From positions 1,929,833-1,961,832 of the forward strand of contig NZ_CP123991.1 of NCBI RefSeq assembly GCF_029919255.1: DNA of 32,000 nucleotides. The letters are read 5' to 3'. This DNA comes from a cyanobacterium endosymbiont of Epithemia clementina EcSB. Its GTDB lineage: Bacteria > Cyanobacteriota > Cyanobacteriia > Cyanobacteriales > Microcystaceae. Shown here one piece after another: positions 1-32,000 of the stretch (position 1 is its first letter; each line of letters begins with the position of its first letter). Made by a program: the position numbers and the translations under genes. The notes under the pieces were generated by a model. It was not told where the DNA came from. It saw nothing but the letters and a program-made list of their open reading frames with translations, and did not search any database.

Positions 1-740
1 TAGAGTGGAGACCCAGGGAATCTGTCCTCATGATACGAAAAAACTTGCGGGGTTCCCATCCTCAATTTACGGCTTCTGCCAAGGAGGGTAAATATTATGC
101 TACTCAGCAGAAACTTGAATTTATAGGCAATATTATTGCTACCTCAAAAAAGCCTCGAATGCAACTGAAAACAGAACATCTACTCTGGAAGATTCCTGAA
201 CAAAAGGTAATTGGTGATCGTTTACTTAACATAGTTCGTTTCCAAGATAAAATCGTCACCGACAAACTAGTTGCTAACCGTGCTGAAGTTCATCTCAACA
301 CCAAACAGATCATTGTTAAAGACAATATTGAATTCAAATCAATTAAACCTCCGGTACAAGTAGCAACCAACGAATTTATTTGGAAATACGAAGTGCGTCA
401 AGTAACCTCTAGCAGACCCGTCAAATTAATTCACTATCAACAGGGAGTTATCGTCACTGGTAATCAAGCTGAGGTCGATCTCACTAATAGTATTGCTTAT
501 CTTCGAGGTGGTGTTCAAGGCAATAGCACCGCTAATGCCGCCAAACTATATTCAAACGATCTTACCTGGAATGTTGACACTCAGATCATCGAAGCCTTGG
601 GAAATGTCATTTACGAACAAACCAATCCTGACTTTAATTTAACTGGGGAAAAAGCTGTAGGCACTATACATGATAACAAAATTGTTGTCAGCGGCAATGC
701 TCAAGATCGAGTAGTAACGGAATTTTTCCCAAATAAATAA
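1..740 (+). CDS. LptC/OstA-like periplasmic LPS-export protein, probably 5'-truncated by the window edge
   Basis: ORF 30..740. The same frame has no stop back to base 3. The listed Met is not followed by a signal or TM segment, so the gene probably starts left of the window. The repetitive beta-strand-like pattern (VIGDRLLNIVRFQDKIVTDKLVANRAEVHLNTKQIIVKDNIEF; GVIVTGNQAEVDLTNSIAYLRGGVQG; LYSNDLTWNVDTQIIEALGNVIY) recalls cyanobacterial LptC-family proteins. The family call is from memory only. Confidence 0.45.
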   Translation, partial: EWRPRESVLMIRKNLRGSHPQFTASAKEGKYYATQQKLEFIGNIIATSKKPRMQLKTEHLLWKIPEQKVIGDRLLNIVRFQDKIVTDKLVANRAEVHLNTKQIIVKDNIEFKSIKPPVQVATNEFIWKYEVRQVTSSRPVKLIHYQQGVIVTGNQAEVDLTNSIAYLRGGVQGNSTANAAKLYSNDLTWNVDTQIIEALGNVIYEQTNPDFNLTGEKAVGTIHDNKIVVSGNAQDRVVTEFFPNK

Positions 741-759
741 CTTAAACTAACTGTTTTTC

Positions 760-1476
760 ATGAGAACGGTATTACTTATGAGTGTAATTACCTCTACTAC
801 TATGAATTCTTGCATTTTATTAGTACAACTTGACGAATCCTTTAATCAACGCGCAAAAGCTGATCTAATAGAAATTGGTTACACTCCAGTGATTGTATCC
901 GACGCTCATCAAGCTCTACTCGAAGTCAAAAAGCAACAACCGGCTATGATAGTTATTGATCGTCACCGCTCAAAAAAAGCTGGATTGACTTTGTGCCGTC
1001 AGTTGAGAAAGGTTCAAAACCGAGTATTGATTATTATGGTGCTTGATCAAGAAAGCGTTGAAGAAAGAGTGGCTTGTTTAGAGGCAGGAGCCGACGACTA
1101 TATATTAACAGCTTATCATACTGAAAACCTGCTTAGGTTAGTCCATTTTTATTTAACTACTAGTGAAACAGTTACTGAAAGACTTCAATTTGATAATTTA
1201 ATATTGAATTTGAATAACCGCCAACTTTTTATTAATGAAATAGCCATTGATTTGACGATGAAGGAATTTGAATTACTTAAATACCTCATGTCTCATCCTA
1301 AAGAAATATTAACACGAGATAAAATTTTGGAAAATGTTTGGGGATATGATTTTCAAGGCGAATCTAATGTAATCGAAGTTTATATTCGTTATTTACGCTT
1401 AAAAATAGAGATTAAAAATCAAAAACGATTGATCCACACTGTTCGCGGTGTTGGCTATGTTCTACGAGAAGGATAG
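760..1476 (+). CDS. OmpR/PhoB-family response regulator with a degenerate (pseudo-)receiver domain, NblR-like
   Basis: The C-terminal winged-helix motifs are clear (LTMKEFELLKYLMSHPKEILTRDKILENVWGYDF, VIEVYIRYLRLKI, IHTVRGVGYVL). The N-terminal receiver fold is present but non-canonical (ILLVQLDES, AMIVID, IIMVLD, GADDYILTAYH). The likely true start is ATG 802 (MNSCILLV) rather than 760. Confidence 0.85.
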   Translation: MRTVLLMSVITSTTMNSCILLVQLDESFNQRAKADLIEIGYTPVIVSDAHQALLEVKKQQPAMIVIDRHRSKKAGLTLCRQLRKVQNRVLIIMVLDQESVEERVACLEAGADDYILTAYHTENLLRLVHFYLTTSETVTERLQFDNLILNLNNRQLFINEIAIDLTMKEFELLKYLMSHPKEILTRDKILENVWGYDFQGESNVIEVYIRYLRLKIEIKNQKRLIHTVRGVGYVLREG

Positions 1477-1565
1477 TCAGAAAAAAGGGAGACAAGGGGA
1501 AAAATCCTACTTTGTATTTCTTGTCTTAATCTTTAACTGTAATTGTTGATAAACACTGACGTAAG

Positions 1566-2105
1566 ATGGGACTTACAATGAAATTATCGATTTCCTTAAC
1601 CTCAACTGTTATTATTGCTATTTCATCTTTTGGATATTCTTTACCAGAGCGGACTCAATCCCAGTCTAGTGAGGTTGAGAAGACATTGGAAATCATTGCC
1701 CAAACCCAAGGTCAAAGTCTCCCTGTGGAAGCAAAGGCAATGATCAATGGACAAGTGATTGAATTAGAAGTTGCTCAAACTCCAGAACAACAAAGCATCG
1801 GATTGATGTATCGGGAGTCTTTAGCAGATAATCGAGGAATGCTCTTTGTTTTTGAGCCTGCAAGGCCGGTAAGATTTTGGATGAAGAATGTTAACCTGTC
1901 CCTAGACATGATTTTCCTATTCGATGGAGAAGTCAAACAGGTGGTAACTAATGTTCCCCCTTGTCAAGAAGACCTCTGTTCTACCTACGGACCTATTCTT
2001 AACACCGATATCGATATGGTGATTGAATTACGGGGGGGACGTGCTGCACAATTAGGTATTGAATCAGGCGATCATATTCATATTGAATTTTTCACTTCTT
2101 TTTGA
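1566..2105 (+). CDS. DUF192-domain protein with N-terminal signal/anchor
   Basis: It has a hydrophobic N-terminus (MKLSISLTSTVIIAISSFG). The DUF192 core is LEVAQTPEQQSIGLMYRESLADNRGMLFVFEPARPVRFWMKNVNLSLDMIFL ... VIELRGGRAAQLGIESGD. An alternative start is ATG 1578. Confidence 0.8.
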   Translation: MGLTMKLSISLTSTVIIAISSFGYSLPERTQSQSSEVEKTLEIIAQTQGQSLPVEAKAMINGQVIELEVAQTPEQQSIGLMYRESLADNRGMLFVFEPARPVRFWMKNVNLSLDMIFLFDGEVKQVVTNVPPCQEDLCSTYGPILNTDIDMVIELRGGRAAQLGIESGDHIHIEFFTSF

Positions 2106-3537
2106 CATTCCTCTAGAAATACTCTTCCTTAGGAGTCGCGCAAGCACACTGCACAGACCTTTTTGGCTTAGCATAGGATGTTACTGTTTCACTGAACTCT
2201 TCTAGATAGAAAAAAAATGTTGCTATTTATCTACTTCCGTCAAGATATTTCCATACTCGTCACTACCGACTGTCCATGGGCTGTGAATGTATAGCTTTTT
2301 AATCATCAGAAAAACTTTTTTTCTGTTTCGAATTTTTTAGCATTGTTGATTGCCAGACACAACCTACGTACGCGTGTACCCATCAGCGAGAGTAATAAGG
2401 TTCGCCCTTTAATTTCTTGGCGTGTTTCCAAGTGTCTATTAGACTAGTTTTAGTCTAGCTTAGTCGTTAAGTACTGAGTAGCTTTCACCCTGAGACCGCA
2501 ATATTGCGCTTATTTTTCTTTCCCTGCGGGAAGCTAAACAGAAAAGTCTTAATCTTGTTTAACAAAGTTAAAAATTAGTGTCAAATTTATGCTAACTAAT
2601 GTCTCTATTAGTTTTGAGCTTTGTTTGAGCTTCTCATGCTAGAGTATTTTCTCATTCTTTCAGTACGAGTTGGCAATTTATCCACTGCCTTAATAGTTCT
2701 TAACATAGTGTTGTTGATTTATGTCTTACTACTCATTCCTTCTATCTCGAAGAATAAATCCTTAAGTCGACGATTCGTAGATGTAATATCTCCTCAAATA
2801 AAGGACAAAGTCGACCAAAATACTAGTCTACCTTAAGTAAAATTAAGTCCTATCCCGTAATGGAAAGTTCAGTGGATAGATGGTGTGAGTAAGAATAATA
2901 CGAAAAAACTCAAAGAAGCTTTTAGGATTTTTATCCATCTAGAGTTGATAAATAAGGAACGAGTAAACGTAGCCACGCGTACATATTTCTACATGTTAGT
3001 TATTTTCATTAGCTTCCTAACATATAAAGAGTTTGCTCTTGAGGAAGAACATTCCCTAACGATTAACTATATTTTGCCTCAATGTTGACATAACGATCAC
3101 GGTAGACTACAAAGTGAAAATTTAATCAGTCGTTACCACTCTTAGGACATAATCATCCTCAACGATCAAGGAACAATTAAAACTCAAAGATGAAACCTAC
3201 ATAAAAAATCAGAAAAGACGATGTCAAATACCACATTATAAACAATTATTACTTTTGTTGGATAAAGACTTAGCTCTTTCTAAGAATTAAATTGCTGTTG
3301 TTCAACTGAACGTTGAACAAACTTAAGAGCCCCCAATGGTCCTATGGCAGTATAGATTAGTAAATCTTAAAGAATTAGATCAAATTTATGACTGGTTAGA
3401 ACAGATCTGAGTTTAATTTGATCACGGTTAGTTAACTTGTCTTATTAAAAATCAAGAGAGAGTGCAAGGAATAAACTCAAAAGTGGATAGGCTCAGAGAA
3501 CTAAGATAAAATGTTCTGATAACTTCTGGCTTAAACT

Positions 3538-4335
3538 ATGTTTCAAACTCAAGAATTACGGATTGGTTGGCTATATCCCACTTTAATGAGTACCTATGGT
3601 GATCGAGGTAATGTCATCTGTCTTCAACGTCGTTGTCAATGGCGTGGACTCAATGTTACTATCGTCCCTATAACTCAGCAAACAGAAGCCTCGATGTTTA
3701 AAGAAATCGATATCATTGTCGGAGGTGGGGCCCAAGATCGTCAACAAGAGATTGTGATGCGAGATTTGCAAGGGGCTAAAGCTGAGGCTTTTAAAGATAA
3801 AATTGAAGAAGGAACCCCTGGAGTGTTTACCTGCGGTTCTCCTCAACTTTTAGGCCATTACTATGAACCTGCTTTAGGACGACGCATTGAGGGGTTAGGG
3901 TTACTAGATTTAGTTAGTAAACATCCCGGATTAAATGTATCTCGTTGTGTTGGTGATGTTGTCTTTGAAATCACTCCTAGTCCCCTAGCAGAAGCTTTAA
4001 GAAAACAATTAGGAAAACCTCCGATTATCATCGGGTTTGAGAATCATGGAGGGCGGACTTATTTAGGAAAAGTTGAACCATTAGGAAGAGTGATTAAAGG
4101 GTATGGGAATAACGGAGAAGATGGTTATGAAGGAGCTTTTTATCGTCATGTGATCGCTACTTATTGCCACGGGCCTTTGTTACCTAAAAATCCTTTTGTT
4201 GCTGACTGGTTAATTCAAACGGCTTTACAAGAAAAATATCAAGCCGAAATTTCCTTAGACCCTCTTAATGATTCTCTTGCAGAACAAGCTAGGAAAGCTA
4301 TGTTAAAACGTCTTGAAGTTGGTTATGTAGGATAA
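3538..4335 (+). CDS. CobB/CobQ-like type-1 glutamine amidotransferase, GatD-like (lipid II isoglutaminyl synthase amidotransferase subunit family)
   Basis: Motifs seen: LRIGWLYPTLMSTYGDRGN, DIIVGGGAQDRQQ, nucleophile-elbow Cys in FTCGSPQLLG, and His motif GFENHGGRTYLG. The 265-aa length fits the family. No intact partner Mur-ligase-like gene is adjacent. Confidence 0.7.
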   Translation: MFQTQELRIGWLYPTLMSTYGDRGNVICLQRRCQWRGLNVTIVPITQQTEASMFKEIDIIVGGGAQDRQQEIVMRDLQGAKAEAFKDKIEEGTPGVFTCGSPQLLGHYYEPALGRRIEGLGLLDLVSKHPGLNVSRCVGDVVFEITPSPLAEALRKQLGKPPIIIGFENHGGRTYLGKVEPLGRVIKGYGNNGEDGYEGAFYRHVIATYCHGPLLPKNPFVADWLIQTALQEKYQAEISLDPLNDSLAEQARKAMLKRLEVGYVG

Positions 4336-4737
4336 AAGCAGTTCACGGTGAAATATCTATTAAGCTTTTAAATACTAACGACACTATTTCCTTTACTAGT
4401 CTATTTATCAGTAACCCTTTTACGCCGATCAATAAGAATATTCAACAATTTTTAAACTTTATCCATCAAGATAAATTTAGTTAATTGAGTTAAAAATCAT
4501 CATATTTTATTTATCAAAATTTTATTGACAGCAACCGATAAAGATTTTTGATTTTGGAGCAGTAAGGCAGAACCCTAGGTATTATTAAAAAGAATTTTTT
4601 CTTTTAAAGAGTATTATTTTATCTAGGTTGTTATATATAAACTGCCAATTCTAAATTGTTTTAAAATCTGGAGATTTAAGTGAAAGATACTATAGTTAAT
4701 ATCCACTTTTTTCTACAATTTTTATAAAAATTTACCC

Positions 4738-4760
4738 TATATAAAACCTGGTTTTATATA
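4738..4760. repeat. Palindrome, 11-bp arms
   Basis: TATATAAAACC-T-GGTTTTATATA. Confidence 0.7.
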
Positions 4761-4841
4761 CCGAAATAATGAAATTTTCTGTTCATAATTAAGTTATTAA
4801 ATTTGGAAATCACTAAGCGTTAAATAAAACTATATTTTAAC

Positions 4842-4861
4842 TTATCTAAATATTTAGATAA
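4842..4861. repeat. Perfect 20-bp palindrome
   Basis: TTATCTAAAT|ATTTAGATAA. Confidence 0.7.
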
Positions 4862-5169
4862 TCAAAATTACCATTCAAAAAACATAACTGACTCTATTTC
4901 TTTTTTTATTTTTAATAATAGCATTTTCTTACTCTAGTCGTATAACCATATGGATGTTTTTTCAAAAATTAAATACAGCTAAAGCCATATTTAATTCAAT
5001 ACACCCTTCTATTTTCAAAAATATTTTCTAGTTTTTCACCTTAATGCTTATTATTCTAGTTTAAAATTTCCTAATATTTGTAAGTTTTTTCTGGTTATTT
5101 CTTATTTGTTATACATACAACTTATATATTATTCTGTAATATTATTATTCTATAATTTGGCTATTTTTA

Positions 5170-5219
5170 TTTAAGTTAGATCGTTATTTTTTGAGCAAAA
5201 AATAACGATCTAACTTAAA
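5170..5219. repeat. Perfect hairpin, 23-bp arms and 4-nt loop
   Basis: TTTAAGTTAGATCGTTATTTTTT (5170-5192), loop GAGC, then AAAAAATAACGATCTAACTTAAA (5197-5219). It lies in the convergent gap between the gatD-like gene and the ferredoxin-like pseudogene. Confidence 0.95.
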
Positions 5220-5379
5220 CTTTTGTTTGCTTTCAAGTTTACTATATTTTCCTGATTTGTTAGTTTTTTCTGAATATTTTCCTATTTCGTCTGTTTTTTT
5301 AGACTATTAATTAAAAGTATTATCAATTTTTAATAAACGATAAACTCTAATCTTTACATATGCAGGGTTTAGTTTCAAG

Positions 5380-5648
5380 TTAAACTGGTTCATTAACCAA
5401 TGTTTGACAGGATAAGTGATAATTATCGGGCTTTTTCTTAAGTGCACACTTTTCAAAATCTGTTCGTGGTGACCAATTTTCTACCCCTTCAACAATTTCT
5501 ACGATACAAGTCCCACATTGACTATAGCCCCCACAATTAATGAGTTTTCCCTTTAGAGATCAATCTGGTTTTGTAGAGCCTTTTCTCTGAGGTTAGCTCC
5601 TTGAGCCGCGACAATATCTTTATTTTCCTTAACAAAAAAAATAGTCAT
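5380..5648 (-). pseudogene. Small 2Fe-2S ferredoxin-like gene (CGG-x-x-QCGTC type) disrupted by one 1-nt deletion
   Basis: The minus strand reads ATG(5648) [31 protein letters not shown] then TAA. Shifting one base continues [57 protein letters not shown] to the stop at 5380-5382. The total is 269 nt (3x90-1). The junction GATCTCTA-AAGGGA looks like GAT CTC TAx AAG GGA with one base lost. All four Cys are retained. Confidence 0.8.
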
Positions 5649-5754
5649 CTGCTTTTATCATCCGAATCTAAGTTTTTAACATTCTTCCATAATTTTTATA
5701 AGTTTTAAGACTCGGCTAATCTTAACTAACAATTTTGTTTCAGTTCAGTAGTAT

Positions 5755-6525
5755 TTATGTAATTCTAACAGGAACTTGGCGATCACGTAAGTATTCTTTG
5801 ACTTCACCAATGGACAACTTACCGCAATGGAGTAAAGAAGCTAATAAAGCTGCTTCAGCACGACCTTTAGAGAAGGATTCATAGATATGTCTACAATTTC
5901 CCGCTCCTCCAGAGGCAATTACTGGAATTTCTACTAGTTCAGCGATAGTGCGAGTTAATTCCAGATCATATCCAGCCTGAGTTCCATCCGCATCCATACT
6001 GGTTATTAACAATTCCCCTGCACCCCGTTTTTCCGCGTTTTGTGCCCACTCGATGGCATCTATCCCTGTACTTTCCCGTCCTCCTCGCACATAGACTTCC
6101 CAGCCGTCATTATCAGGATATTTGCGCCGTCTAGCATCAATAGCAACTACGATACACTGTTTACCAAAGCGATCACTAGCACGGTTGATAAAATCAGGTT
6201 TACGAACAGCGGCGGAGTTAATACTAATTTTATCAGCTCCGGCCCTTAACAGATTTTTGATGTTTTCTAGGGTTTGAATGCCACCCCCAACGGTTAAAGG
6301 GATGAAAATGGCTTCGGCAGTACGATAAACGACATCAATAATGGTGTCTCGTCCCTCATGAGTGGCAGTAATATCGAGAAAGACTAATTCATCAGCCCCA
6401 GCATCATTGTAGACTTTTGCTAATTCCACAGGATCTCCAGCATCTTGGAGATTAAGAAAATTAACACCTTTGACCACGCGACCGGCACTAACATCGAGAC
6501 AAGGTAAAATTCGTTTAGCTAACAT
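5755..6525 (-). CDS. hisF: Imidazole glycerol phosphate synthase cyclase subunit HisF
   Basis: Full-length 256-aa match to the HisF pattern: [47 protein letters not shown]...IPLTVGGGI...[12 protein letters not shown]...IVVAIDA...[17 protein letters not shown]...[22 protein letters not shown]...[10 protein letters not shown]. Confidence 0.97.
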
Positions 6526-6621: not shown

Positions 6622-7845
6622 TTAATTGTTCAGAGTTTCAATGTTTACTTCTCCTTTTTCGGTCATCCAAACGAGAGTTTTGATGTGATTTTTCAACGCA
6701 TAATTACGAATTTCTTCGGGAGAACGTCCTCCCAATTCTAGGGCTACCCTTAACTTTTCTGATGATTGTCTAAGTTGTTGAGCATAACTCAAGGCCATTG
6801 ATTGAGTCCGAGAAGTTTGAGCAATCACGAGGGAATCAATTAGAGGAGGAGTTTGCGGCAAAATAGCAGTGGTTAATAAACAAGTGTATATGTCTTCAAG
6901 ATTGAAAGAAAATCCAATACCTGGAGCTGATGTTTGCTGAGGATGGTAAACCCCAAGAAGTTTGTCATAGCGTCCACCCTGACCTAAAATTTGTAATTGG
7001 TTGTTGTTTTTTCCAATAGCTTTAAACACAATTCCTGTATAGTAATCAAAGGTTTGAATTAAACTTAAATCTAAGGTAAATGGAAAGGGTTTTGACCAGC
7101 TTGTTTCAATTAGTTCGACCAAGGCTCTTAGATTATTAACACTTTTTTGTCCAGCCTTATCCAACTCTAATTGGACAACTTTTTGGAGTACCTGAGCAGG
7201 AGTTCCCCGTAAATCAAACAATAATTTTCCTCGTTGTTGTAAGTCAACAGAAGGGTAGTCAAGATTTTCTAGGGTGACATAGTCAAGTTGAGCTAAACAT
7301 TGACGCACTTGACTTTTGAGGGAACCTGGAAAGGGTTCAAGAAGTGATCGCGTGAGACTAGCTTCTCCTAAAATGAGATGCCAATGGGGAATTCCTAACT
7401 GTTCGAGACAATCAGCGACTAATAATAAAATTTCCGCATCCGCTAACACTCCTCCCGAAAAAAGCAATTCTACCCCTGCTTGATAAAACTCTAATTGTTT
7501 TCCGTGATGACCAACCGGAGGATCCCGAAAAACATTAGCACGATAACAGAGGCGTTGAGGATAAGTGGTATCAGCCATGCGAGTAACAGCAGTTCTGGCA
7601 ATCGAGGCAGTTAGTTCTGGCCGCAATCCTAATTGCCCTGTAGAACTATCCTGTAGTTGAATAACCGTTGAAGGATCAATAGCTCCTCCGGCCATCAATG
7701 TTTCTAACCATTCAATGGTGGAAGTGACAACACGTTGATATCCCCATTGTCCAAAGACTTGTTGAAGAAGATCATTAATCCAAGCCTTTTGTACGACTTC
7801 GAGAGGAAGTAAGTCTCTTGCTCCTGCAGGTGGTTGATGAATCAT
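6622..7845 (-). CDS. hisZ: ATP phosphoribosyltransferase regulatory subunit HisZ (HisRS paralogue)
   Basis: Motifs seen: PAGARDLLPLEV, WGYQRVVTSTIEWLETL, LGLRPELTASIARTAV, QRLCYRANVFR, LEFYQAGVELL, DAEILLL. This is the HisZ rather than HisS pattern. The gene is 407 aa and lies next to hisF. Confidence 0.85.
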   Translation of the reverse strand: MIHQPPAGARDLLPLEVVQKAWINDLLQQVFGQWGYQRVVTSTIEWLETLMAGGAIDPSTVIQLQDSSTGQLGLRPELTASIARTAVTRMADTTYPQRLCYRANVFRDPPVGHHGKQLEFYQAGVELLFSGGVLADAEILLLVADCLEQLGIPHWHLILGEASLTRSLLEPFPGSLKSQVRQCLAQLDYVTLENLDYPSVDLQQRGKLLFDLRGTPAQVLQKVVQLELDKAGQKSVNNLRALVELIETSWSKPFPFTLDLSLIQTFDYYTGIVFKAIGKNNNQLQILGQGGRYDKLLGVYHPQQTSAPGIGFSFNLEDIYTCLLTTAILPQTPPLIDSLVIAQTSRTQSMALSYAQQLRQSSEKLRVALELGGRSPEEIRNYALKNHIKTLVWMTEKGEVNIETLNN

Positions 7846-8125
7846 GGTTTTCTTTCGCCTATTGCTTTGTATTGTTTTGCCCCAAAAAGGGGAGGTTAAA
7901 GTTCTGTCTTTTAGCCTAGCTTAGGATTGCCTTTTACCAGTGGAGTATAAACTACTTCTTTTTCCCGAACAAAGAGCTAAACAGTTTTCCCTCAATTGAT
8001 TTATCAGAAGATTTGTGTTTGTCATTGCTCATTAGTTGATCAAGAGATTTTTTAGCTTAAATAACCACCAGGTGTTTAGAGTTTCCTTGCGGAGCTTTAT
8101 TGATATGAACCCTAGTCATGGTGAG

Positions 8126-8640
8126 TCAATTTTCTTCAAAAGAAGCTAATCCGAGTGCTTCATGACATACTGAATTATTTGGTTCAGTTTTCAGGGCTTC
8201 TCGTAATTCTATAATGGCTTGGGACATTATATTCTTGGCGCTCAAGATGTCAACGCGCCCGTCTAATGACAGAATAAACAACGGAAACAAAAGTTTTTTC
8301 AATCTATAGCTGTTGTTTAGGGTCTTCTAGATCAAATTTAGGTTTAGGCAGTTCAGGAGAAGGTTTAATTCTAGTTTTTTCCCTTGCCGCATTCATTATT
8401 TAGATAAACTAAATTCAATTCATCAAGTTTACAGTGTTTACCAATGCTTGAGCCAAGTCCTTATACTGTTCATAAATTAAGGATTTAATTAACTTTTAGA
8501 TAAATTCAATGAGTGTTTTGAGTCACTGTAACCTGAAATAATTTGTAGGCAGTTTTAGCGCCTAAAGTAATATAGCTCAGCATCTCCGGCTAAATCCAGA
8601 CCATTCAAGCTGGCCTTTTGAGGGGGTTTTCTAGGCAGGA
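8126..8640 (-). pseudogene. TPR-repeat protein fossil (multiple in-frame stops)
   Basis: One minus-strand frame reads ..LDLAGDAELYYFRR*NCLQIISGYSDSKHSLNLSKS*LNP*FMNSIRTWLKHW*.. and ends ..SQAIIELREALKTEPNNSVCHEALGLASFEEN*. Both parts fit the TPR consensus (AEAYYNRG.AY...G.Y..AI..F.KAI.LNP). Codon starts at 8638 and 8128 are in phase (510 nt apart). The upstream limit is unclear. Confidence 0.45.
8226..8253 (-). promoter_or_regulatory. Perfect sigma70-type consensus promoter motif (TTGACA-16 nt-TATAAT) pointing toward hisZ
   Basis: The minus strand reads TTGACA (8253-8248), then TCTTGAGCGCCAAGAA, then TATAAT (8231-8226). It lies inside the TPR fossil, about 380 nt upstream of the hisZ ATG. 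Function is untested and a chance match is possible. Confidence 0.3.
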
Positions 8641-8973
8641 TTAACTTATTGTTATAACAAGTTATTCTCTAGTTTCTTCCTGTTTTCTATTTTCCCCTTA
8701 CAGGTATTAAAATGAAGACAAAAAGCAACTTTCAGGTAACGTTGGGAAATTTACTTGATATCCACATCTATCGGAAGCCCAAGAATTGTATAGTAATAGT
8801 GGTAGATGAGATCATATTTAAATAGTCCTTGTTAAATAGGAAGGCTTACGCCAAATTTTAAGCCCACCCCTTCAGTGACTGAAACTTTTCTTTTTTCTTA
8901 TGTCGTTATCATCTCTACTGTGTCTTCAAACACCAAATTTCTAGCTGTATAACTAGGATCACCTAGCGCTCGA

Positions 8974-11317: not shown

Positions 11318-11350
11318 AATTACCCTCACCACTATCAAGGTATAAAGAAC

Positions 11351-21662: not shown

Positions 21663-21855
21663 GGTAATTCCCTCTAAGTAGGAGAAACGCCCCTTTGTTT
21701 CCCTTTCTTCAACTCTAGAAGGATTTTTTATCTCACACCATAAAGATAAGATTATAACTACAAGATATGACAACAAACAACGACTGTAAAAAAAATAATA
21801 GTTGTTAAGAACATTTAAATTAAAGAGATAAGTTTGAATCTCAATTAAACAACTA

Positions 21856-23603: not shown

Positions 23604-23689
23604 AATTTCCAAAATATATAGATATTACTCATTTAATAAAATTACTATTTTTAGTTTTTAACTTTGGAGTATTTATAATTACACTTTTT

Positions 23690-24174
23690 ATGTATCAGGC
23701 TGGGTTCTTCCGATAATTCACAATCTGAATAACCTAGTAACTTTTTTATAAAATGGAGAACCCCATGCTGAAGTAAAAAAATGAGCCAGCAGTTTTAATC
23801 GGTAATTATCTCTACTCTGATATGTTTCCCCTGTCTAAATAGATTCAAATTGTCTCTGACATTGCCAGAAGAGGAATAGCAAGACTTGCGACACAATGGA
23901 GGATAACTAGACAACTTTTTAGAGTTAACTACGGGAATTTAAGAGATAATTTGAATCTCACGACCTTTACATCTGAACAAATTGATGAGATAGAAACTAA
24001 GTGCATTGGTCTATCTTTTGTAGAAAAACTTTAACTTTTGATGGACAACAATTTGCTCTTCACCTTATCATACCTAATATTTACTTTCGCGTGACAACCG
24101 CTTATTATACCTTTCGTTATTGCGGCGCATAAATTGGTAAACATGATTATCTCAGTTCTGCTCAGAATTTATGA
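23690..24174 (+). pseudogene. DUF1993-family gene fossil (many stops and at least 2 frameshifts)
   Basis: From ATG 23690 one frame reads MYQAGFFR*FTI*IT**LFYKMENPMLK*KNEPAVLIGNYLYSDMFPLSK*IQIVSDIARRGIARLA. A shifted frame then gives MEDN*TTF. A third frame gives TLTFDGQQFALHLIIPNIYFRVTTAYYTFRYCGA*IGKHDYLS. These are collinear with the DUF1993 pattern recalled from memory (MxLYQAS.P.F...L.NL..IL.K...HA....DPAVLL..RLAPDMFPL..Q.QIASD.AKG.AARLAG....FEDNETTF ... LTF.G..YL..F.LPNFYFHVTTAY.ILR..GV.IGK.DYLG). The 485-nt length fits a ~165-aa protein. Confidence 0.75.
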
Positions 24175-24703
24175 TAATTATCATAGTGTATGCATTTTTA
24201 GCCCAATTTAAGGTAAATATTCAGCTTTTTAAGTAAAAAAATATTTAAACATTGTTTAATGGTAATTAAGTACAAGCTTTTTAAAATGTTATAATCAAGC
24301 AACTATAAATGTTTTAAAATTGTCCAAAATAATATTAATTTTATTGGTTTATTACATTTATTTATGGTGAGCAAAATCAAGGAATAGCTATTTTAAAATA
24401 GCCATATTTATATCATGCACTGAGTCCCAATTAATGTAAAATAGTTCTGCTATATTCATTTTTATTAGAAACTATATTTTTACTTTTCTTTTAAAAGAAA
24501 TCGTAAGAAATGTCTTTAGTCTGCGCATTAATCACAAGGATAGTACTAACTTTTTCTGTTGTTTTTTGTACGTCAATAGTATTATTGCTATCCATAATAG
24601 TTATAAAAAAAATAGAACAGAAACTATTTATGATAATAAAATATGCACTTATCTGAGCCTAAATGAACAGGTTTAGTTACAGTTTGATAGTTAAAATTCT
24701 GTG

Positions 24704-24734
24704 ACTAGTTAATAGACTTAATCTATTAACTAGT
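24704..24734. repeat. Hairpin, 13-bp arms and 5-nt loop
   Basis: ACTAGTTAATAGA, loop CTTAA, then TCTATTAACTAGT. Confidence 0.85.
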
Positions 24735-25054
24735 TTAAATATGACACATAATAATTGTTTTAAACAATGACTAATTTAAGTGCTAATTTTAGAATTATAA
24801 CAACAAAAAAATACACTTTAATAGGAGTTAAATGAAACTTTAAAAATCTAATGAAATTTAGTACTATAAACTTAGTTAAATTTCAAGAATACTAGTTTTA
24901 GATTAAAAAGTAGAGTTGTTTTAAAAAATTAATCTTTATGGTTAACTAAACTCTTGACTACCTCAATGTTAATTCCTAACTCCCAAAAATCACTAGAAAT
25001 CGTGTATAATGACAGTTTTGGAGTAACTATGTATTTTAGGAGAAAATCTGTTAT

Positions 25055-25663
25055 ATGTCTCGTTATAGAGGACCTCGCTTAAGAGTTGTACGACGACTAG
25101 GAGAACTCCCTGGCTTAAGTCGCAAAACCCCCCGTCGTGCTTATCCCCCAGGGCAACACGGACAAGGACGTAGAAAGCGTTCAGAATACGCTATTCGTCT
25201 CGAAGAAAAACAAAAACTGCGCTTTAACTATGGCGTAACAGAAGGTCAACTAGTACGCTATGTAAAAAAAGCTCGTCAAGCTACAGGTTCTACCGGTCAA
25301 AAACTTCTAGAATTGCTAGAAATGCGCCTTGATAATACAGTGTTTCGCTTAGGGATGGCGGGAACAATTCCAGGAGCCCGTCAGTTAGTCTCTCACGGTC
25401 ATGTTACCGTTAATGGCAAAGTTGTTGATATCCCTAGTTATCAGTGCCGTCCTGGGGAAGTAATCTCAGTTCGTAATCAGGATCGTTCTCGTCGCCTAGT
25501 AGAGGCGAATATGGAATACCCTGGTCTGGCCAACCTTCCAAGTCATTTAGATTTTGATAAAAATACCTTGACAGGAAAAGTCAATGGAATTATCGAACGG
25601 GAATGGATAGCTTTACAAATTAATGAATTGTTGGTAGTTGAGTATTATTCTCGGAAAGCTTAG
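25055..25663 (+). CDS. rpsD: 30S ribosomal protein S4
   Basis: [23 protein letters not shown] ... [21 protein letters not shown] ... LE.RLDN.VFRLG.A.T...ARQLV.HGH..VNGK.V.IPSY. The 202-aa length fits. AGGAG lies 12 nt upstream of the ATG. Confidence 0.97.
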
Positions 25664-25669
25664 AAGAGT

Positions 25670-25698
25670 ATTGGATAACTTCAATAGTTGTCCAATTT
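25670..25698 (+). terminator. Hairpin immediately after the rpsD stop
   Basis: ATTGGATAACT (25670-25680), loop TCAAT, then AGTTGTCCAAT (25686-25696). The 11-bp stem has one A/G mismatch and is followed by TTTACT. The U-tract is weak. Confidence 0.4.
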
Positions 25699-26086
25699 AC
25701 TCATGAACTTCGATTATTTAACTTGACTTAAAAATTTTAAAAATAATAAATATAAAATCTTTTGATCCTATCAAAGTTTATCTCCAATAATCGAGTCTTT
25801 TTTACAGTTATTTATAGTTTTTCAGGGATTTGGGTTACCTCGCAATGTAGTGATGATATCACCAACGGTGTAGTTCTCTTTCTTAAAAAAACCTTTATGA
25901 CCTTAATAATTATGTAGAGTCATTGCCAGAGACTAGGGCAAAAGTTAATTACTAGACAACTTATTTTTATTGTATACGCACTTAACAAAATCATAAACTT
26001 ATGTAGTTTAAGGAAATTAATCCTCTATTTCATTGAAACTATCCTTTTCAGGATTTACTTGGGAATTAAGAAAGTGTAATTACAAA

Positions 26087-26788
26087 TCAATCGGTTCTTG
26101 TTACTTCGTCGGTTCCAAAGGTTTCAACTAATCGTACTAGCGGTGACCGAGATACAGGGGCGGCTATGATGGTACTTCTTTCTGTTAGCCAAGGGCTAAC
26201 CGTTGACACCAGACTGCTAAGTCACTTTACTATACCCACCAAGAATTTTGGGTTAGTCTTTTTGGGGTTCTTTAACTAAAGTTTGGACAATGTCATAGAA
26301 GAAGATAGGTTTGATCGAGCAAAACCTTTTAACTTTCCGACCATATCCGCATAGGTGAGAGAAGGAGGCAAAACAACCACTCGGACATTATAGGGAACTA
26401 GTTATTCTCATAAGGCTTAAGTAAAGCCCGAAAGAGTCAATTTAGTTTTCAGATGAGTTGCGATGGTGGGGCGGCAATTTTTCCTATTAAACTCGCTCGA
26501 AAATTTTATTGGGTCATACATCGGGCTACAAACCGAGTAATGCCATGGGTTTCCATTAAATTGATAGCCAATTCATTGTCAATTTGAGATAATCGAGTTA
26601 TCAAAAAAGAACTTTATTCTTATCAGGCTTGACTAATAGTTTTGATTGACAGTAGTAAGTTTAAGTTTGGCATTGCGGACTACCAATAATAGACGTCTGA
26701 AATCATGGCAAGCCAATTCAAGAGGGCCCACTCGTCTAATCCTACGGAAAGCCCCTGTGACTATTACTGTTTTTCCTGAAATTTTCAT
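26087..26788 (-). pseudogene. Short-chain dehydrogenase/reductase (SDR) fossil: 8 in-frame stops, no net frameshift
   Basis: From ATG 26788 the minus strand reads MKISGKTVIVTGAFRRIRRVGPLELACHDFRRLLLVVRNAKLKLTTVNQNY*, a decayed TGxxxGIG Rossmann start. The same frame continues through ..SNLSSSMTLSKL*LKN.. (decayed YxxxK) and ..VSTVSPWLTE.. (decayed PG..T) to the stop at 26087. I checked codon phase at 26368 and 26089. The span is 234 codons, a typical SDR length. Confidence 0.75.
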
Positions 26789-27267
26789 ATTCAACACCTC
26801 AACTCAATTCAAAATATTAGGGGTTAGGCGCATAAAGATTTTGTACTCGTTTCATGGGAGATGAGTACAGAGGGGATTCTTCCTACACGTTTCAAGAATT
26901 GAAAAGAACTTAGACCGCAACAAGCATTTAAAATTAATTAGTTAATGACTATTACTTAGGGGCGTTAACCTTAAATTCCATTTAATCTATCTCTTTTTCT
27001 GACTAATTCCTACGCTAAAGATGTGTACATACTCGCATATAAAATAGGATTACCGCTAACTGTTTTATCGTAACTTTTTTTCTTCCACAAAAAACTTTTG
27101 TCTATGATGTCGTCACTACTTTATAAATGAAAGAGTAAAAGAGTATAAGAGACTAAATATTGGTTCTAATAGGATATTGATGGTACGTATCTTTGATACG
27201 AGAGTTGACCGGATTGACCTGAATAACAAAGTTAAGTAACCAAATCAAAGATTAAAAATAAATCTTC

Positions 27268-27323
27268 ATAATTATAGCTAGTCTATCCACTCTAATAAGA
27301 GTGGATAGACTAGCTATAATTAT
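27268..27323. repeat. Perfect hairpin, 26-bp arms and 4-nt loop
   Basis: ATAATTATAGCTAGTCTATCCACTCT (27268-27293), loop AATA, then AGAGTGGATAGACTAGCTATAATTAT (27298-27323). Confidence 0.95.
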
Positions 27324-28398
27324 ATTCATCTGTTACTAAATTTATATACTAAATTAATAGGTTTATTCATAGTTCTATAATTTGGAAATTATTGGGCTTA
27401 CAAATATTGTTCTAATTTTGATCGATAGTTTTTATTGATATTAAGATAATATGGAAATACAAATATAGTTTTTTTCTATGAATTTTATTGTTTTTATGAC
27501 TTTCTCAACTTATTATCAATACTTTCTACAGTTCCCTGAGTTGTTGATAAATTCATATAGGCAATGATTTTCCAATCTGACGTCTAATTTACAATTGTTT
27601 AGCATCTAGCTCTAATAAATAAGATTTATTAAACTAATTAACTAACTCTAATAGTCCTTAAATTTAGTCTATTTTTTTTAAAAACCTGTTATAAATTACT
27701 ATTTATATTAGAGCATTTTGAAGAATACTGACTGAGTTTTATACACTTAGTTTAATTTGTATTTTTGTTTGCTACTTATATTTTATATATCCCCGATAAT
27801 AGCAAATTTTGTCTTATTTAAAATTGCTATTTTTTCAAGCTAGCAATTTTAAATTTTCTATCTTCTTGTTTAAGAACTTATTTCTGACTATATGGTCAAA
27901 GATTAATTTTTTTCATTCTATAAAATTTATTTATTATTAATTTAGCTTGTGGCATGAATTTATAACATTATTACAAAATTTCCAAAGCTCTATACTAACT
28001 TCTTTTCTTTTTGTAAACACCTCTTTCCCTCAAACTTCTAGTTGTTCTACTATTTTCTTATATTTTCTCATTGCTATCATTTATAAATTTATTTATTTAT
28101 CTAATTTTACTAACACTAAATAATAACTTTCTTATTCTTTAATTAGAAAGTCTTTATCAATTGCCAGCCGTTTCAATAGCTGAGGCATTCTTATGTGTAA
28201 TTCTTAATTTAAATCTTTAAAAATTGTTTCTATTTCTTATTCAATTACTCCACTATCGCTATTTAAGATCTTTTCAATTAATTTGATCTTATTTGTATAT
28301 GTGCTTTGTTAAAAACACATAAGATAGTAAGCCGTTAATTTTTATATCGTTTATTACTTGATATTTGAAGTATTAAATTAGGTTTAAAAATTGCGTTT

Positions 28399-28440
28399 AA
28401 TATAGTATCTTAGCTATAAAGATAGCTAAGATACTATATT
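28399..28440. repeat. Perfect hairpin, 19-bp arms and 4-nt loop
   Basis: AATATAGTATCTTAGCTAT, loop AAAG, then ATAGCTAAGATACTATATT. Confidence 0.95.
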
Positions 28441-28497
28441 TATATCTTTTTTGGGGAAAATAGACTTATTTAAGCTCTAATTAACAATAGACATAAA

Positions 28498-28521
28498 CTC
28501 GTTAATCAGAAGATTAACGAG
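28498..28521. repeat. Hairpin, 10-bp arms and 4-nt loop
   Basis: CTCGTTAATC, loop AGAA, then GATTAACGAG. Confidence 0.8.
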
Positions 28522-28982
28522 CTCAGGATATAATAAGTTATCAGAATATTTTCTATTTATCCACTATAGTTAATTGATTTTACCATCTATTTTTTTTCTG
28601 TTCATGTTTATTTGAAAATAATTTTTAATTAAAAGTATAGATAACCTGACCTATCAAATCAATTAAATTAACCATGTACTTAAGAAAAAGATTCGTTTTT
28701 TTTAAAAAAATTCATAAAGAAGAAAAATATAATTCAAGATGTTCTTGAGTTATAAAAGGTTAAATCAGATGTATAAATAGCTACAGAAGTTACCATAATT
28801 TTTTGGCGAATTGTAAATAATGAAATTTAGTTATTCAACTAAACTTTAATACTTAATTTCTAAAGAAAAACTAAATTTATTCAACGTTTACAGAAGTTTT
28901 GACTAGCATAGGAGATGTATATGGCTTTAAAAAAAATTAAAGAATGTTATTCAAATCTCACTCATCATTAAATTAATCAACT

Positions 28983-30113
28983 ATGAAATTTGTTGACGAA
29001 TACCGCGATGCTAACTTAGCTCAACAATTTTCCAGGAAAATTGCCCAGATAACCACCAAAGATTGGAAGATAATGGAAATCTGTGGTGGACAAACCCATT
29101 CTATTGTGAAATATGGAATTGATGAACTTTTACCCTCAAAAATTACTTTGATTCATGGACCAGGTTGTCCAGTATGTGTAACCCCTATTCAATTAATTGA
29201 TTCTGCCTTAAAAATTGCTGCTCTTCAAGATGTAATTTTCTGTTCCTTTGGGGATATGTTACGAGTCCCTGGAACCGATGAAGATTTGCTTACCATCAAA
29301 GCAAGGGGGGGCGATGTTCGCATCGTGTATTCTCCTTTGGATTGTCTTAAACTTTCCGAGGAAAATCCTAACAAACAGGTGGTCTTTTTTGCTGTCGGGT
29401 TTGAAACCACTGCCCCTGCGACCGCCATGGTTGTTTATCAAGCTGAACAACGCGCAATAACCAATCTTTCTTTATTAGTGTCTCATGTCCTGGTCCCCCC
29501 CGCCATGGAAACTATTTTAGGGTCACCTCAATCCCAAGTACAAGGATTTTTAGCCGCCGGTCATGTTTGCACAGTAATGGGATATGAAGAATATAATCCC
29601 ATTGCCCAAAAATACGGCGTTCCTATTGTAATAACAGGGTTTGAACCCGTTGATGTTCTCCAAGGAATTTATCTATGTCTGCAACAGTTAGAGTCAGGAC
29701 AAGCATACTGTGAAAATCAGTATGTCCGTTCCGTGGAGCAACAAGGTAATTCTATAGCAAAACAAATTATTCAAGAAGTATTTGAGGTAGTTACCCGTCA
29801 ATGGCGAGGTATTGGGGAGATTAATAAAAGTGGCTTAGGTTTGCGGGAAAAATACGCTAGTTTTGACGCCTTGAAACGGTTTGCTTTAGAATGCCGAGAA
29901 GAGGAGTTACTTTTAACCAAACCCTCTTATGTCTCTTCGATTTGTATTAGTGGGGAAATCATGCAAGGCCGTAAAAAACCCCAGCATTGTCCTGCCTTTG
30001 GGAAAGAATGCGCCCCAGAACATCCGTTAGGCGCACCGATGGTATCCTCAGAAGGAGCTTGTGCTGCTTATTATCGCTATCGTAGTTATCAAAGTCGAAC
30101 ATTGATGGTTTAA
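28983..30113 (+). CDS. hypD: [NiFe]-hydrogenase maturation protein HypD
   Basis: Motifs seen: [53 protein letters not shown], and the C-terminal Cys-rich region ..[31 protein letters not shown]. Confidence 0.93.
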
Positions 30114-31048
30114 GAAGTCAAAACCTTATGGCAATATCTTTTCTTTTTACTTTGGTCGCAGCCTTGATAACCACAATAAAATTTAACTATACTATAAGTA
30201 CTGTCATTTTATATAAAATCTAAATCTTAAAATGACTGATTATCCTGATCCGAAATATAAAAATTAGCAACCGATACACTAGCGTAGACTTAGATAAGAA
30301 TTATCAAAAGACTCATATTCTATTGGGTTAAAAAGCAATCCAGTTTTTGTTGGTGTTACTGCCATTATCATTAGTTGATTAGACTCCTATTATTTTAAGA
30401 ACCTCTATTATTCTTTAGTTGGGAGAAATCTCTTCCCTTATTCAAAGACTTAATGATAATAAGCTAGAAGTTAGTAACTAAAATTTACTAGTTAACTTTA
30501 AAGCGTAAATTAATATTTTGAAGTCTTTGTTTAATCAATTTCTTATTAGTCGTTTCAGAGAAGATGAAAAGATAGTCTATTATTACTGCTAATCGTTTAT
30601 CCGAGATGTTTAACAATTTGTCTCATGACAGCGTGAACTGTTTCTAGCTAAGAGAAAGTTATGAACTTGTTTATTGAATCAAGTTAAATATAAATTGACT
30701 TTATCCGGTAAATTTTAAGTATTAATAATATAACCATTAATACCTGTTTTAGTAAAGTAAACTAACGTAAATTTATTGGCTATTCTTAGTTAAGGAATAA
30801 ACATGAAATAATTAAAGTAATTAGACAAATTATTTAGTTTTCTTTCGATGTTTTAGTAGTTTTTTAAAAAAAAGTTTAAAACTTAATATTCCCTATAAAA
30901 ACTCGATAAAAAAACTATTTATGACTAGTAGTTGGAATACTTTTTTTATTGAGTTTATGTAATAGAAAATAGTTGTTCTTCTTGAAAAGAAAAGCTAAAA
31001 TTTTCTAAAAGTACCAGCAATTTTAAATTTTAGAGATAGAGAAGAATG

Positions 31049-31103
31049 TTAAAATTGTTAACTTAATGCTTCTTTTTAAAAAGAATTAAGTTAACAATTT
31101 TAA
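31049..31103. repeat. Inverted repeat, 19-bp perfect arms and 17-nt spacer
   Basis: TTAAAATTGTTAACTTAAT (31049-31067) pairs with ATTAAGTTAACAATTTTAA (31085-31103). The spacer itself contains TCTTTTT/AAAAAGA. Confidence 0.9.
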
Positions 31104-31368
31104 AAAATTTCTTATAAAAATATTGTTCAATTTTATATTTATCTTATAAAGATAATTAAGACTTCAATAAAATTAATGAAAGTCTAGTTATTTCAATTTG
31201 AAATATAGTTTATTTATGGTCATAAAATTTGAGAGAATAGAAGCTTATTCTTTTAGTATTTTATAAGCTTTTATAAAGCTAGAGCTAATGAAAGCTGAAG
31301 AGTTGATTGATAATTGACATTAAATCTAAAAAAATTAGTAATTTAAGTAAATTTAAGTTTTTTATAAA

Positions 31369-31401
31369 AAAATAGTTACCATATATTATCGTAACTATTT
31401 T
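31369..31401. repeat. Inverted repeat, 11-bp arms and 11-nt spacer
   Basis: AAAATAGTTAC ... GTAACTATTTT. Confidence 0.75.
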
Positions 31402-31448
31402 ATTCATCCTAGAAAAATAATGTTTAAAATAATTTATTAATCCGCAAC

Positions 31449-31489
31449 TGTTAAGTATGATTATATTAATAATCCAATCATACTTAACA
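31449..31489. repeat. Inverted repeat, 14-bp arms and 13-nt spacer
   Basis: TGTTAAGTATGATT ... AATCATACTTAACA. Confidence 0.85.
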
Positions 31490-31932
31490 AGTTTTATAAC
31501 AATTAGAAAGATGTTTAAAAAAGAAACTAATAATACTAGTAGTTCACGTTTTGTTTTATTAAATGCATTGCCATTTTGTGAAGTACTGATAAGATAATTT
31601 TTAACAATTAAGGTTAATAAGTCTATAGAATAGTTGATTTAGACGTTGAAGTCTATTCTCTAAAGGTATTAATTCAAGAATTTTATATACATCATTAATT
31701 TTATACTTTTCGGAAATTTTAACCAAAGTTAAACATTATTGATTCTTCAATAATGTTAATGATGACTATGGTAAGATATATGGCAATAGTTAAGAACTAG
31801 TAAAGAAAACTCCCCAGCAGCTCAGATACATATTTTTCATGTTATTTATCTAAAAAAAGTATATTTTTATCTAAAAAATCTATACAAAGAAAATAAAAAA
31901 AATAAATCCAAATGGCGCACAAATAGTTCCTA

Positions 31933-31974
31933 TTTTAGTAAGATTAGTTAATTAATTAACTAATCTTACTAAAA
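31933..31974. repeat. Perfect 42-bp palindrome (21-bp arms, no spacer)
   Basis: TTTTAGTAAGATTAGTTAATT|AATTAACTAATCTTACTAAAA. I checked it base by base. Confidence 0.95.
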
Positions 31975-32000
31975 GTAACTTCCGGTATTAGAATACGATT

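Follow-up and report, generated by a model that had tools for sequence, protein, structure and literature searches.

Spheroid bodies, or diazoplasts, of diatoms belong to a small number of young symbioses, tens of millions of years old at most, in which a bacterium is turning into an organelle. Two of their genomes were found to hold 286 and 225 pseudogenes, together with 22 and 18 non-functional insertion sequence (IS) elements (Nakayama and Inagaki 2017; PMC5638926), and spheroid-body genomes have since been described as 2.4–3.2 Mb in size, with 33–35% GC, 0.58–0.68 genes per kb and ‘degraded gene fragments’ (10.64898/2026.03.19.712447). Here we report the analysis of a window of 32,000 nucleotides (nt), by which we mean the whole stretch of DNA examined, from the cyanobacterial endosymbiont of Epithemia clementina EcSB (contig NZ_CP123991.1, positions 1,929,833–1,961,832), where intact housekeeping genes are parted by long AT-rich non-coding gaps that we call deserts. 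We consider it very probable (roughly 0.93) that this layout results from gene loss in an obligate diatom endosymbiont from which dead DNA is slowly removed. Reductive genome evolution with slow deletion had already been proposed by a first-pass annotation of the window made from the sequence alone; it is supported here by collinearity with other spheroid-body genomes, by a neutral rate of desert divergence, by an AT bias and by gene fossils that can be named. The main findings are already published for spheroid bodies in papers of 2017, 2024 and 2026 (Abresch et al. included): the 2024 paper is in agreement with ours (PMC11131595), and the 2026 preprint on 22 further genomes states the same observation in its title (10.64898/2026.03.19.712447).

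The 18 long open reading frames (ORFs) of the window cover 16,624 of its 32,000 bases (52.0%), which amounts to 0.56 genes per kb; they are the same 18 intact coding sequences that the first-pass annotation had put at about 16.3 kb. Ten deserts, measuring 0.8–3.3 kb within the window, lie at 2106–3537, 4336–5754, 7846–8973, 11339–12164, 15408–16233, 17824–19154, 20205–21341, 23604–25054, 25664–28982 and 30114–32000, and the gaps listed earlier differ from these only through choices of start codon. That the gaps are more AT-rich than the genes, as had also been claimed, is evident from a GC content of 28.7% outside versus 39.7% within the ORFs, with some desert cores at 21–25% and the window as a whole at 34.4%. 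Summed over 21-kb loci, gene calls give about 79% coding in the free-living Rippkaea PCC 8801 and about 82% in SU2, the unicellular cyanobacterium that was the closest free-living relative obtained for comparison, versus about 48% in the genome of the window, all three percentages being manual sums over the listed gene calls. None of the 18 long ORFs encodes a transposase, a tRNA search of the window found no tRNA gene and an Rfam search no family at gathering score; tandem repeats are negligible and dispersed direct repeats were not found within the window.

The protein matches place spheroid bodies first. At the BamA locus, scanned with one genome per species, identity is 93% for the symbiont of Rhopalodia gibberula, 92% for that of R. 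gibba, 90% for that of E. turgida and 87% for that of E. pelagica, all of them spheroid bodies, followed by 80% for free-living SU2, 80% or less for Crocosphaera and 63% for UCYN-A (‘Candidatus Atelocyanobacterium thalassa’). HypD is 86–91% identical to the spheroid-body copies versus 79% to that of PCC 8801, and GatD matches at 100% identity a protein that carries the name ‘cyanobacterium endosymbiont of Rhopalodia musculus’. The guess that the DNA comes from a Cyanothece-related diatom spheroid body, made without knowledge of its source, is borne out by these three proteins. Identical GatD and MnmA proteins are also found on a second contig of 3,074,008 bp, and the exact HypD is encoded in GCA_052156355.1 on a contig of 3,073,171 bp, a length within the 2.4–3.2 Mb published for spheroid bodies. 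The window is about 99.85% identical to GCA_052156355.1: across its first 14.3 kb 13 sites differ, and its last 13 kb has 27 differing sites along with one indel, which makes about 0.15% overall. It is therefore not the same record but comes from a strain very close to it.

Collinearity by blastn is near-continuous over 22–32 kb, non-coding DNA included, with six spheroid-body genomes: the symbionts of R. gibberula (AP018341), R. gibba (CP067995), E. turgida (AP012549), E. pelagica (OX373462) and R. sterrenbergii (CP192514), and ERZ25042306 (ENA; 3.10 Mb; locus L098). Spheroid bodies have in common their gene order, their deserts, 84–97% protein identity for most shared genes compared, a GC content of about 34%, about 0.56–0.6 genes per kb and transposases that are fragmentary only. 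They differ in their synonymous divergence (dS) from the window, which is about 0.22 for the Rhopalodia and E. turgida symbionts and 0.43 for the E. pelagica symbiont, and in lineage-specific lesions (ferredoxin and DUF1993 genes dead here are alive elsewhere), deletions and palindromes. The window is thus a typical stretch of a spheroid-body chromosome of the R. musculus type.

Equally long non-coding gaps in free-living relatives, on whose absence the first-pass annotation had staked its claim, were not found: where the window has its deserts, SU2 and PCC 8801 show either a short spacer or an intact gene, and the deserts are therefore not ancestral spacers. The SU2 block purC–bamA–lpxC–ferredoxin–suhB–X–hisZ is collinear with the window, X being an intact gene for a 306-aa protein in which Pfam finds DnaJ and tetratricopeptide repeat (TPR) domains. 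This gene occupies a suhB–hisZ interval of 1114 bp in SU2, whereas the window has a desert of 1128 bp in its place. The bamA–lpxC spacer measures 826 bp here versus 114 bp in SU2 and is short in the Crocosphaera watsonii and UCYN-A4 loci too. At a second SU2 locus, with the order lptC–response regulator–DUF192–DUF2949–gatD–DUF2092, the DUF192–gatD interval measures 717 bp, with an intact DUF2949 gene of 73 aa inside it, versus 1432 bp here, and DUF2092 directly follows gatD on the side where the window has a desert of 1419 bp. The gap between ndhB and mnmA, finally, is 199 bp in PCC 8801 and 1331 bp in the window.

Within the spheroid bodies, the Jukes–Cantor (JC) distances of five deserts are 0.19–0.29 to the R. 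gibberula symbiont and 0.37–0.53 to the E. pelagica symbiont, versus dS values, taken from eleven neighbouring genes, of 0.22 and 0.43, respectively; the retained genes have ratios of non-synonymous to synonymous divergence (dN/dS) of 0.08–0.31. Because desert divergence matches dS while the genes show purifying selection, the deserts can be taken to drift neutrally and not to be hidden genes. Alignment to the near-identical assembly yields about 11 single-nucleotide polymorphisms (SNPs) in about 13 kb of genes versus about 30 differences in about 14 kb of desert, a density about 2.5 times higher in the deserts by hand tally. The lineage-specific substitutions in deserts comprise GC-to-AT changes that are 2–3 times as frequent per site as AT-to-GC changes, and the implied equilibrium GC of 0.25–0.33, a rough parsimony estimate, lies near the desert GC of 0.287.

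Gene remnants were sought with Pfam on desert fragments and by tblastn, for which about 95 fetched loci supplied the ORFs. Ten could be named, seven of them resident genes and three pieces of selfish DNA, covering 3.8 of the 15.3 non-coding kb. The first-pass annotation had considered the long stretches beyond four readable fossils to be unreadable, which stands for about 75% of the non-coding DNA by any method tried, but not for the further remnants named here (DUF2949, DUF2092, DUF2887, DUF7219 and the ISL3 pieces). When stop-to-stop fragments from each of the ten deserts were scanned with Pfam, only Fer2, DUF2887 and DUF1993 were matched. Six pseudogenes (ferredoxin, DnaJ-TPR, DUF1993, DUF2949, DUF2092 and DUF7219) have been matched to intact orthologues at syntenic or neighbouring sites.

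One of these is a young 2Fe-2S ferredoxin pseudogene on the minus strand (5362–5651; Pfam Fer2, E 6e-6). Compared with the intact 115-aa copy of the R. gibberula symbiont it carries a 7-bp deletion causing a frameshift and a premature stop that costs it the final 17 codons, two lesions in place of the single one previously noted at 5380–5648. Only the R. gibberula symbiont has the gene intact; an intact ORF was not found in the other three genomes compared, where separate changes in each lineage are suggested by the nucleotide alignment. The DnaJ-TPR fossil (7955–8855, minus strand; tblastn E 1e-19 to 3e-23) is broken by a frameshift and stops into pieces 33–52% identical to SU2, the neighbouring genes being 82% identical; the readable multi-lesion gene noticed at 8126–8640 belongs to this longer fossil. 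A DUF1993 pseudogene (23683–24171, plus strand; Pfam E 9e-7; tblastn E 8e-20, 38% identity) has kept its full length despite about 16 stops in the aligned frame by our own count, and corresponds to the multiply lesioned gene read at 23690–24174; an intact orthologue of 172 aa is present only in ERZ25042306 among the genomes examined. A DUF2949 remnant on the plus strand (3291–3404) is 72% identical over 39 aa (tblastn E 4e-14). The DUF2092 remnant (4383–4608, plus strand, 25% GC), detected with the SU2 gene that follows gatD (tblastn E 2e-9), retains only about residues 151–218 of 269, its 5′ part being deleted. The DUF7219 remnant (15970–16185, plus strand) contains an in-frame stop and is hit by tblastn from 19 cyanobacterial loci with E down to 3e-8; Pfam scores intact homologues at E 2e-32, and the gene adjoins ndhB in SU2. 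The seventh resident gene, on the minus strand at 26090–26803, stays in one frame with at least seven in-frame stops, much as had been read at 26087–26788. It is probably a fossil of a short-chain dehydrogenase (SDR), as suggested by adh_short at E 0.017, by eight PDB matches, all of them SDRs (E 0.04–0.5), and by alignments that are co-linear at the TGxxxGxG and YxxxK-PG motifs; a related remnant exists in ERZ25042306.

Some deserts are decayed insertions and not former housekeeping genes. The C-terminal DDE part of an ISL3-family transposase (18080–18214, minus strand) was found with a Microcystis ORF (tblastn E 7e-7) that itself scores DDE_Tnp_ISL3 at E 1e-32, and another copy of the sequence lies elsewhere in the ERZ25042306 locus. 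An N-terminal part (27964–28302, minus strand; 40% over 122 aa, E 1e-16), matched by a query carrying Zn_ribbon_ISL3, helix–turn–helix (HTH) and DDE domains, is common to the R. gibba symbiont and absent in the R. sterrenbergii symbiont, where 1.25 kb is missing. Desert 4 (11339–12164) contains a DUF2887 remnant on the minus strand at about 11756–12146 (Pfam E 1e-5; E 5e-7 on the E. turgida symbiont ORF). The bamA–lpxC interval as a whole is a decayed insertion, shared by all five spheroid-body genomes compared at this locus and lacking in UCYN-A and the free-living relatives.

The remaining stretches resist reading. In desert 1 (2106–3537; 1432 bp, 35% GC) only the DUF2949 remnant is legible; the first 1.2 kb or so (2106–3290) resembles the younger fossils in its GC content (35%), found no match in Pfam or any fetched relative, corresponds to nothing in the SU2 interval of 717 bp, and may be a decayed insertion of some kind. 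The AT-rich core at 4609–5361 (21% GC), which contains a palindrome at 5170–5219, is mostly unalignable, palindrome included, to four sister genomes, its 5′ part aligning weakly with the R. gibberula symbiont. Desert 7 (20205–21341, 29% GC) gave no Pfam or tblastn match, and desert 10 (30114–32000, 23% GC), with three hairpin palindromes, is likewise unreadable and runs on to about 33,350 in the genome. We infer that the unreadable 75% would have the same two origins, resident genes and selfish inserts.

The fossils are of different ages, as the first-pass annotation had it, since ferredoxin and DUF1993 are each intact in one sister, while the fossil of DnaJ-TPR, like the rest of the measured deserts, recurs in the spheroid-body genomes compared. 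Because the DnaJ-TPR fossil is common to the spheroid-body genomes compared, its death, together with the origin of the other measured deserts, would predate the radiation of the symbionts; the loss of the ferredoxin gene seems to be under way at present in several lineages, separately in each. GC content roughly follows age, from 37% in ferredoxin and 35% in DUF1993 and DnaJ to 24–27% in the ISL3 and DUF2887 remnants and 21–26% in the unreadable cores, with the SDR-like remnant (40%) as an exception.

Deletion is slow but continuing, because the deserts are full length here and shortened, or interrupted by lineage-specific gaps, in the sisters. The slowness that had been postulated earlier is illustrated by the DnaJ desert, still 1128 bp long beside a live SU2 interval of 1114 bp. 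Desert lengths are alike among the 2.8–3.1-Mb genomes and mostly shorter in the 2.48-Mb genome of the marine E. pelagica symbiont, where most deserts have been shortened by 17–74%: the rsmI–rpsD interval measures 634 bp there and 1451 bp here, rpsD–hypD 1725 and 3319 bp, hypD–eda 846 and 3241 bp, and hisF–gatD 853 and 1419 bp, respectively. The R. gibberula symbiont is missing 77 bp of the bamA–lpxC spacer and the R. gibba symbiont 158 bp. ERZ25042306 is without 1.3 kb (window 20526–21824), that is, most of desert 7 and the ORF for a small secreted protein; having kept DUF1993 and lost most of desert 7, it presents a case of differential loss between lineages (L098, 5887–6405 and 3649–4069).

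These observations can be arranged into a coherent scenario. The spheroid body is an obligate N2-fixing endosymbiont, related to Crocosphaera and Rippkaea, of a diatom of the Rhopalodiaceae, and its restriction to the host would have relaxed selection on many genes. Such genes, along with IS and other selfish inserts between the housekeeping genes, would have been inactivated and, deletion being slow in the lineage, the dead DNA would have stayed in place and drifted at the neutral rate. AT-biased mutation would have carried it towards about 25–33% GC while purifying selection held the genes near 40%; the outcome would be housekeeping genes parted by AT-rich deserts whose readability is set by the time since death. 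Lesioned pseudogenes at ancestral positions, neutral non-coding DNA and AT bias, all expected of early-stage reductive evolution, are present in the window. The active IS proliferation and rearrangement of the classic model are absent from it, as only dead IS fragments and high synteny are observed, a departure that is also stressed in the 2024 and 2026 spheroid-body papers.

Several points weigh against this scenario. A named ancestor could be given to only about 3.8 of the 15.3 kb of non-coding DNA and the rest is extrapolated; likewise, the neutral-rate test covers five deserts, and blastn alone was used to map the three that lie past 23.6 kb. A six-frame Pfam scan of the largest desert, with stops treated as X, returned nothing, and since it missed even the SDR-like and ISL3 remnants that are visible by other means, profile scans are too insensitive at such decay; the SDR assignment itself is statistically weak. 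The ORFs that neighbour hypD in PCC 8801 (SufE, CobW, GTP cyclohydrolase and others) have left no detectable fossil beside hypD here, so that of the former content of the two largest deserts only the SDR-like and ISL3 remnants can be named. Parts of the deserts, moreover, are seemingly functional. A conserved non-coding stretch on the minus strand just upstream of ndhB (17870–17951), the sole part of the ndhB–mnmA desert that still matches SU2, is 67% identical over 27 codons on both strands (about 80 bp) and probably serves as promoter or 5′ leader of ndhB. Next to this stretch, the E. turgida symbiont has a palindrome with 28-nt arms (L006, 6473–6531).

Much of the selfish DNA described above would also be expected if the deserts were mostly decayed mobile elements, acquired around the time of host restriction, instead of genes resident before it. 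Beyond the two ISL3 remnants in the window there is another just outside it; the whole bamA–lpxC desert is a DUF2887-bearing insertion that free-living relatives lack; desert 1 is twice as long as its SU2 counterpart; and dead IS elements are on record for spheroid bodies. Three ORFs that SU2 has between ndhB and mnmA, as well as a small ORF after mnmA, gave no trace in the window by tblastn, and PCC 8801 has only 199 bp between ndhB and mnmA. Yet seven of the ten named remnants are resident genes at ancestral syntenic positions, and the DnaJ desert has the length of the live SU2 interval. As a general account of the deserts we regard this idea as unlikely, if worth serious attention; it complements gene loss with slow deletion and does not replace it.

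The notion that the deserts encode overlooked small proteins, non-coding RNAs or genes in an altered code can draw on the few tiny ORFs that gene finders call there, on the short stretch upstream of ndhB conserved with SU2 and on the presence of long hairpins. It is very hard to reconcile with a desert divergence equal to the synonymous rate, a SNP density about 2.5 times that of the genes, and the negative Rfam (at gathering score) and tRNA searches. Reading through TGA, TAG or TAA singly leaves no ORF longer than 166 codons, which speaks against an altered code; the deserts are partly or wholly absent in sister genomes, and the hairpin sequences vary between species, three of them being recent rewrites. 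We accordingly hold hidden coding content to be highly improbable. Scarcely any weight at all falls on the suggestion that a free-living ancestor already had the long AT-rich intervals, or that the window is an artefact of assembly or a nuclear copy in decay. Cyanobacterial genomes are indeed less compact than many bacterial ones, and E. clementina does carry nuclear insertions of diazoplast DNA (PMC12377750). The reported insertions, however, are mosaics of 1.7–6.4 kb made of distant fragments (PMC12377750), while the window spans 32 kb, is collinear with complete endosymbiont chromosomes and recurs near-identically on a 3.07-Mb contig; independent assemblies of three sequencing runs gave almost the same sequence, and SU2 and PCC 8801, about 79–82% coding over the loci summed, show intact genes or short spacers in the corresponding places.

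The deserts also contain long hairpin palindromes. Five are perfect (5170–5219, 18472–18513, 27268–27323, 28399–28440 and 31933–31974), with arms of 19–26 nt and loops of 0–4 nt, the one at 27268–27323 having 26-nt arms and a 4-nt loop; two more, at 31040–31112 and 31449–31489, are near-perfect. All seven lie within the AT-rich non-coding DNA, which amounts to about 15 kb of desert; no two are alike in sequence, and block shuffles that preserve local composition yield almost none. Long palindromes appear enriched in spheroid-body loci, with 15 in 164 kb versus 15 in 1.2 Mb of free-living relatives and, for arms of at least 19 nt, 11 versus 2, about 15-fold per non-coding kb by a rough normalisation. 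Since every sequence is unique, a repeated mobile family such as miniature inverted-repeat transposable elements (MITEs) or abutted IS ends was rejected; intrinsic terminators are unlikely as well, given AT-rich stems, no T-tract seen, and positions that are in several cases far from gene ends and in one within a divergent promoter region.

Comparison between species hints at how such palindromes arise. For four of the five perfect ones, the surrounding segment cannot be aligned to the nearest sister species. At 27268–27323 and 31449–31489, sister or outgroup genomes keep an imperfect repeat, and the changes in the window cluster in one arm, which has been rewritten into the exact complement of the other; because the clustered changes are confined to one arm, both sites bear the signature of a template switch. 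The same pattern, less clean and compared with one sister genome, is seen at 31933–31974. The bamA–lpxC spacer has a palindrome site that the R. gibba and E. turgida symbionts share (L008 12735–12781, L006 12776–12805 and L005 ~12721–12730 are the hairpin positions in other loci) and that is degenerate in the window (11778–11807); its arms differ between species, with compensating changes as far as the alignment can be read. The E. pelagica symbiont has a different hairpin near this site, the 77-bp deletion of the R. gibberula symbiont includes it, and sister genomes are without the stretches around two other palindromes. The 2-nt loop at 5170–5219 (5194–5195) reads AG here and CT, its reverse complement, in GCA_052156355.1 and two independent read assemblies, which looks like a hairpin inversion between near-identical strains.

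Template-switch, or quasipalindrome-correcting, mutations are reported in work of Ripley and of Löytynoja and Goldman. In such mutations, clusters of substitutions or indels in one arm perfect an imperfect repeat, as at 27268–27323 and 31449–31489, although the perfect arms of 19–26 nt are unusually long compared with known cases. We tentatively suggest, at a little less than even odds, that a hairpin-driven template-switch process is unusually active in the deserts, where it would make palindromes, could flip loops and might mark or promote deletions. For the present, palindromes can count as a feature of the loci compared and not of spheroid-body genomes in general. The observation seems to be unreported so far, as no publication linking palindromes to spheroid bodies was found in the literature searched. 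If general, it would provide a handle on the mutational machinery after the loss of repair genes and on the final removal of dead DNA.

The intact genes are largely those of housekeeping; ndhB and hypD are the only hints at metabolism, and the photosystem and nif regions lie outside the window. At the left edge, positions 1–740 (ORF 30–740, plus strand) hold the 3′ part of an lptC-like gene that starts upstream: SU2 LptC matches the window by tblastn over residues 164–406 with 86% identity, and a gene of 390 aa is called in the fetched locus L092. An intact OmpR-type response regulator (760–1476, plus strand) and a DUF192 gene (1566–2105, plus strand) follow, 82% and 79% identical to their SU2 orthologues, respectively, and in the same order as in SU2. 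The window and the E. pelagica symbiont both have DUF192 intact; of the E. turgida symbiont copy (L006, 21623–21814) only residues 1–64 align, and it may be a pseudogene. The intact gene gatD (3538–4335, plus strand; dN/dS 0.10–0.15 versus sister genomes), a GATase_3 subunit of lipid II isoglutaminyl synthase and the amidotransferase partner of MurT, stands isolated between two deserts without murT adjacent. Because murT is likewise not beside gatD in SU2 or Crocosphaera chwakensis, this arrangement is probably ancestral rather than a loss.

A series of intact genes on the minus strand comprises hisF (5755–6525) and hisZ (6622–7845), both with dN/dS of 0.09–0.17, suhB (8974–9816), a ferredoxin-like gene called at 122 aa (9953–10384), lpxC (10493–11338), bamA (12165–14549) and purC (14682–15407), the last two with dN/dS of 0.11–0.19, and ndhB (16234–17823; dN/dS 0.08–0.17). 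Beyond it lie an intact mnmA (19155–20204, plus strand), the ORF for a small secreted protein (21342–21863, minus strand; 106 aa as called), an intact ORF for a pfkB-family kinase (21856–22722, minus strand) and rsmI, again as an intact ORF (22734–23603, plus strand). The gene for ribosomal protein S4, rpsD (25055–25663, plus strand), is intact and 97% identical to that of the E. pelagica symbiont. The last gene, hypD (28983–30113, plus strand), is intact and encodes 376 aa versus 366–371 aa in other spheroid-body genomes and the free-living relatives listed first, the surplus residues resembling, by inspection, a short C-terminal extension.

Gene graveyards of this kind preserve a record of the functions that could be dispensed with and of the order in which this happened, and the window gives a single-locus view of deaths that preceded the radiation (DnaJ-TPR) beside current independent ones (ferredoxin, DUF1993). 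The published picture is left unchanged and is confirmed for one more strain.

A coding density of about 50% and many pseudogenes are familiar from Sodalis glossinidius, ‘Nostoc azollae’ 0708, Richelia intracellularis and Mycobacterium leprae, which represent the early stage of the McCutcheon–Moran reductive model and usually have many active or recent IS elements and rearrangements. In contrast to host-restricted bacteria of the Sodalis type, spheroid bodies show only dead IS relics and high synteny. UCYN-A, the Braarudosphaera nitroplast, is a related N2-fixing endosymbiont of the Crocosphaera group that keeps the bamA–lpxC neighbourhood. It differs in a BamA only 63% identical and in a bamA–lpxC spacer without the insertion; the coding density of the window is 52%. 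UCYN-A is also the more reduced of the two, with 1200–1246 genes and 57 pseudogenes versus more than 150 pseudogenes in diazoplasts (PMC12377750).

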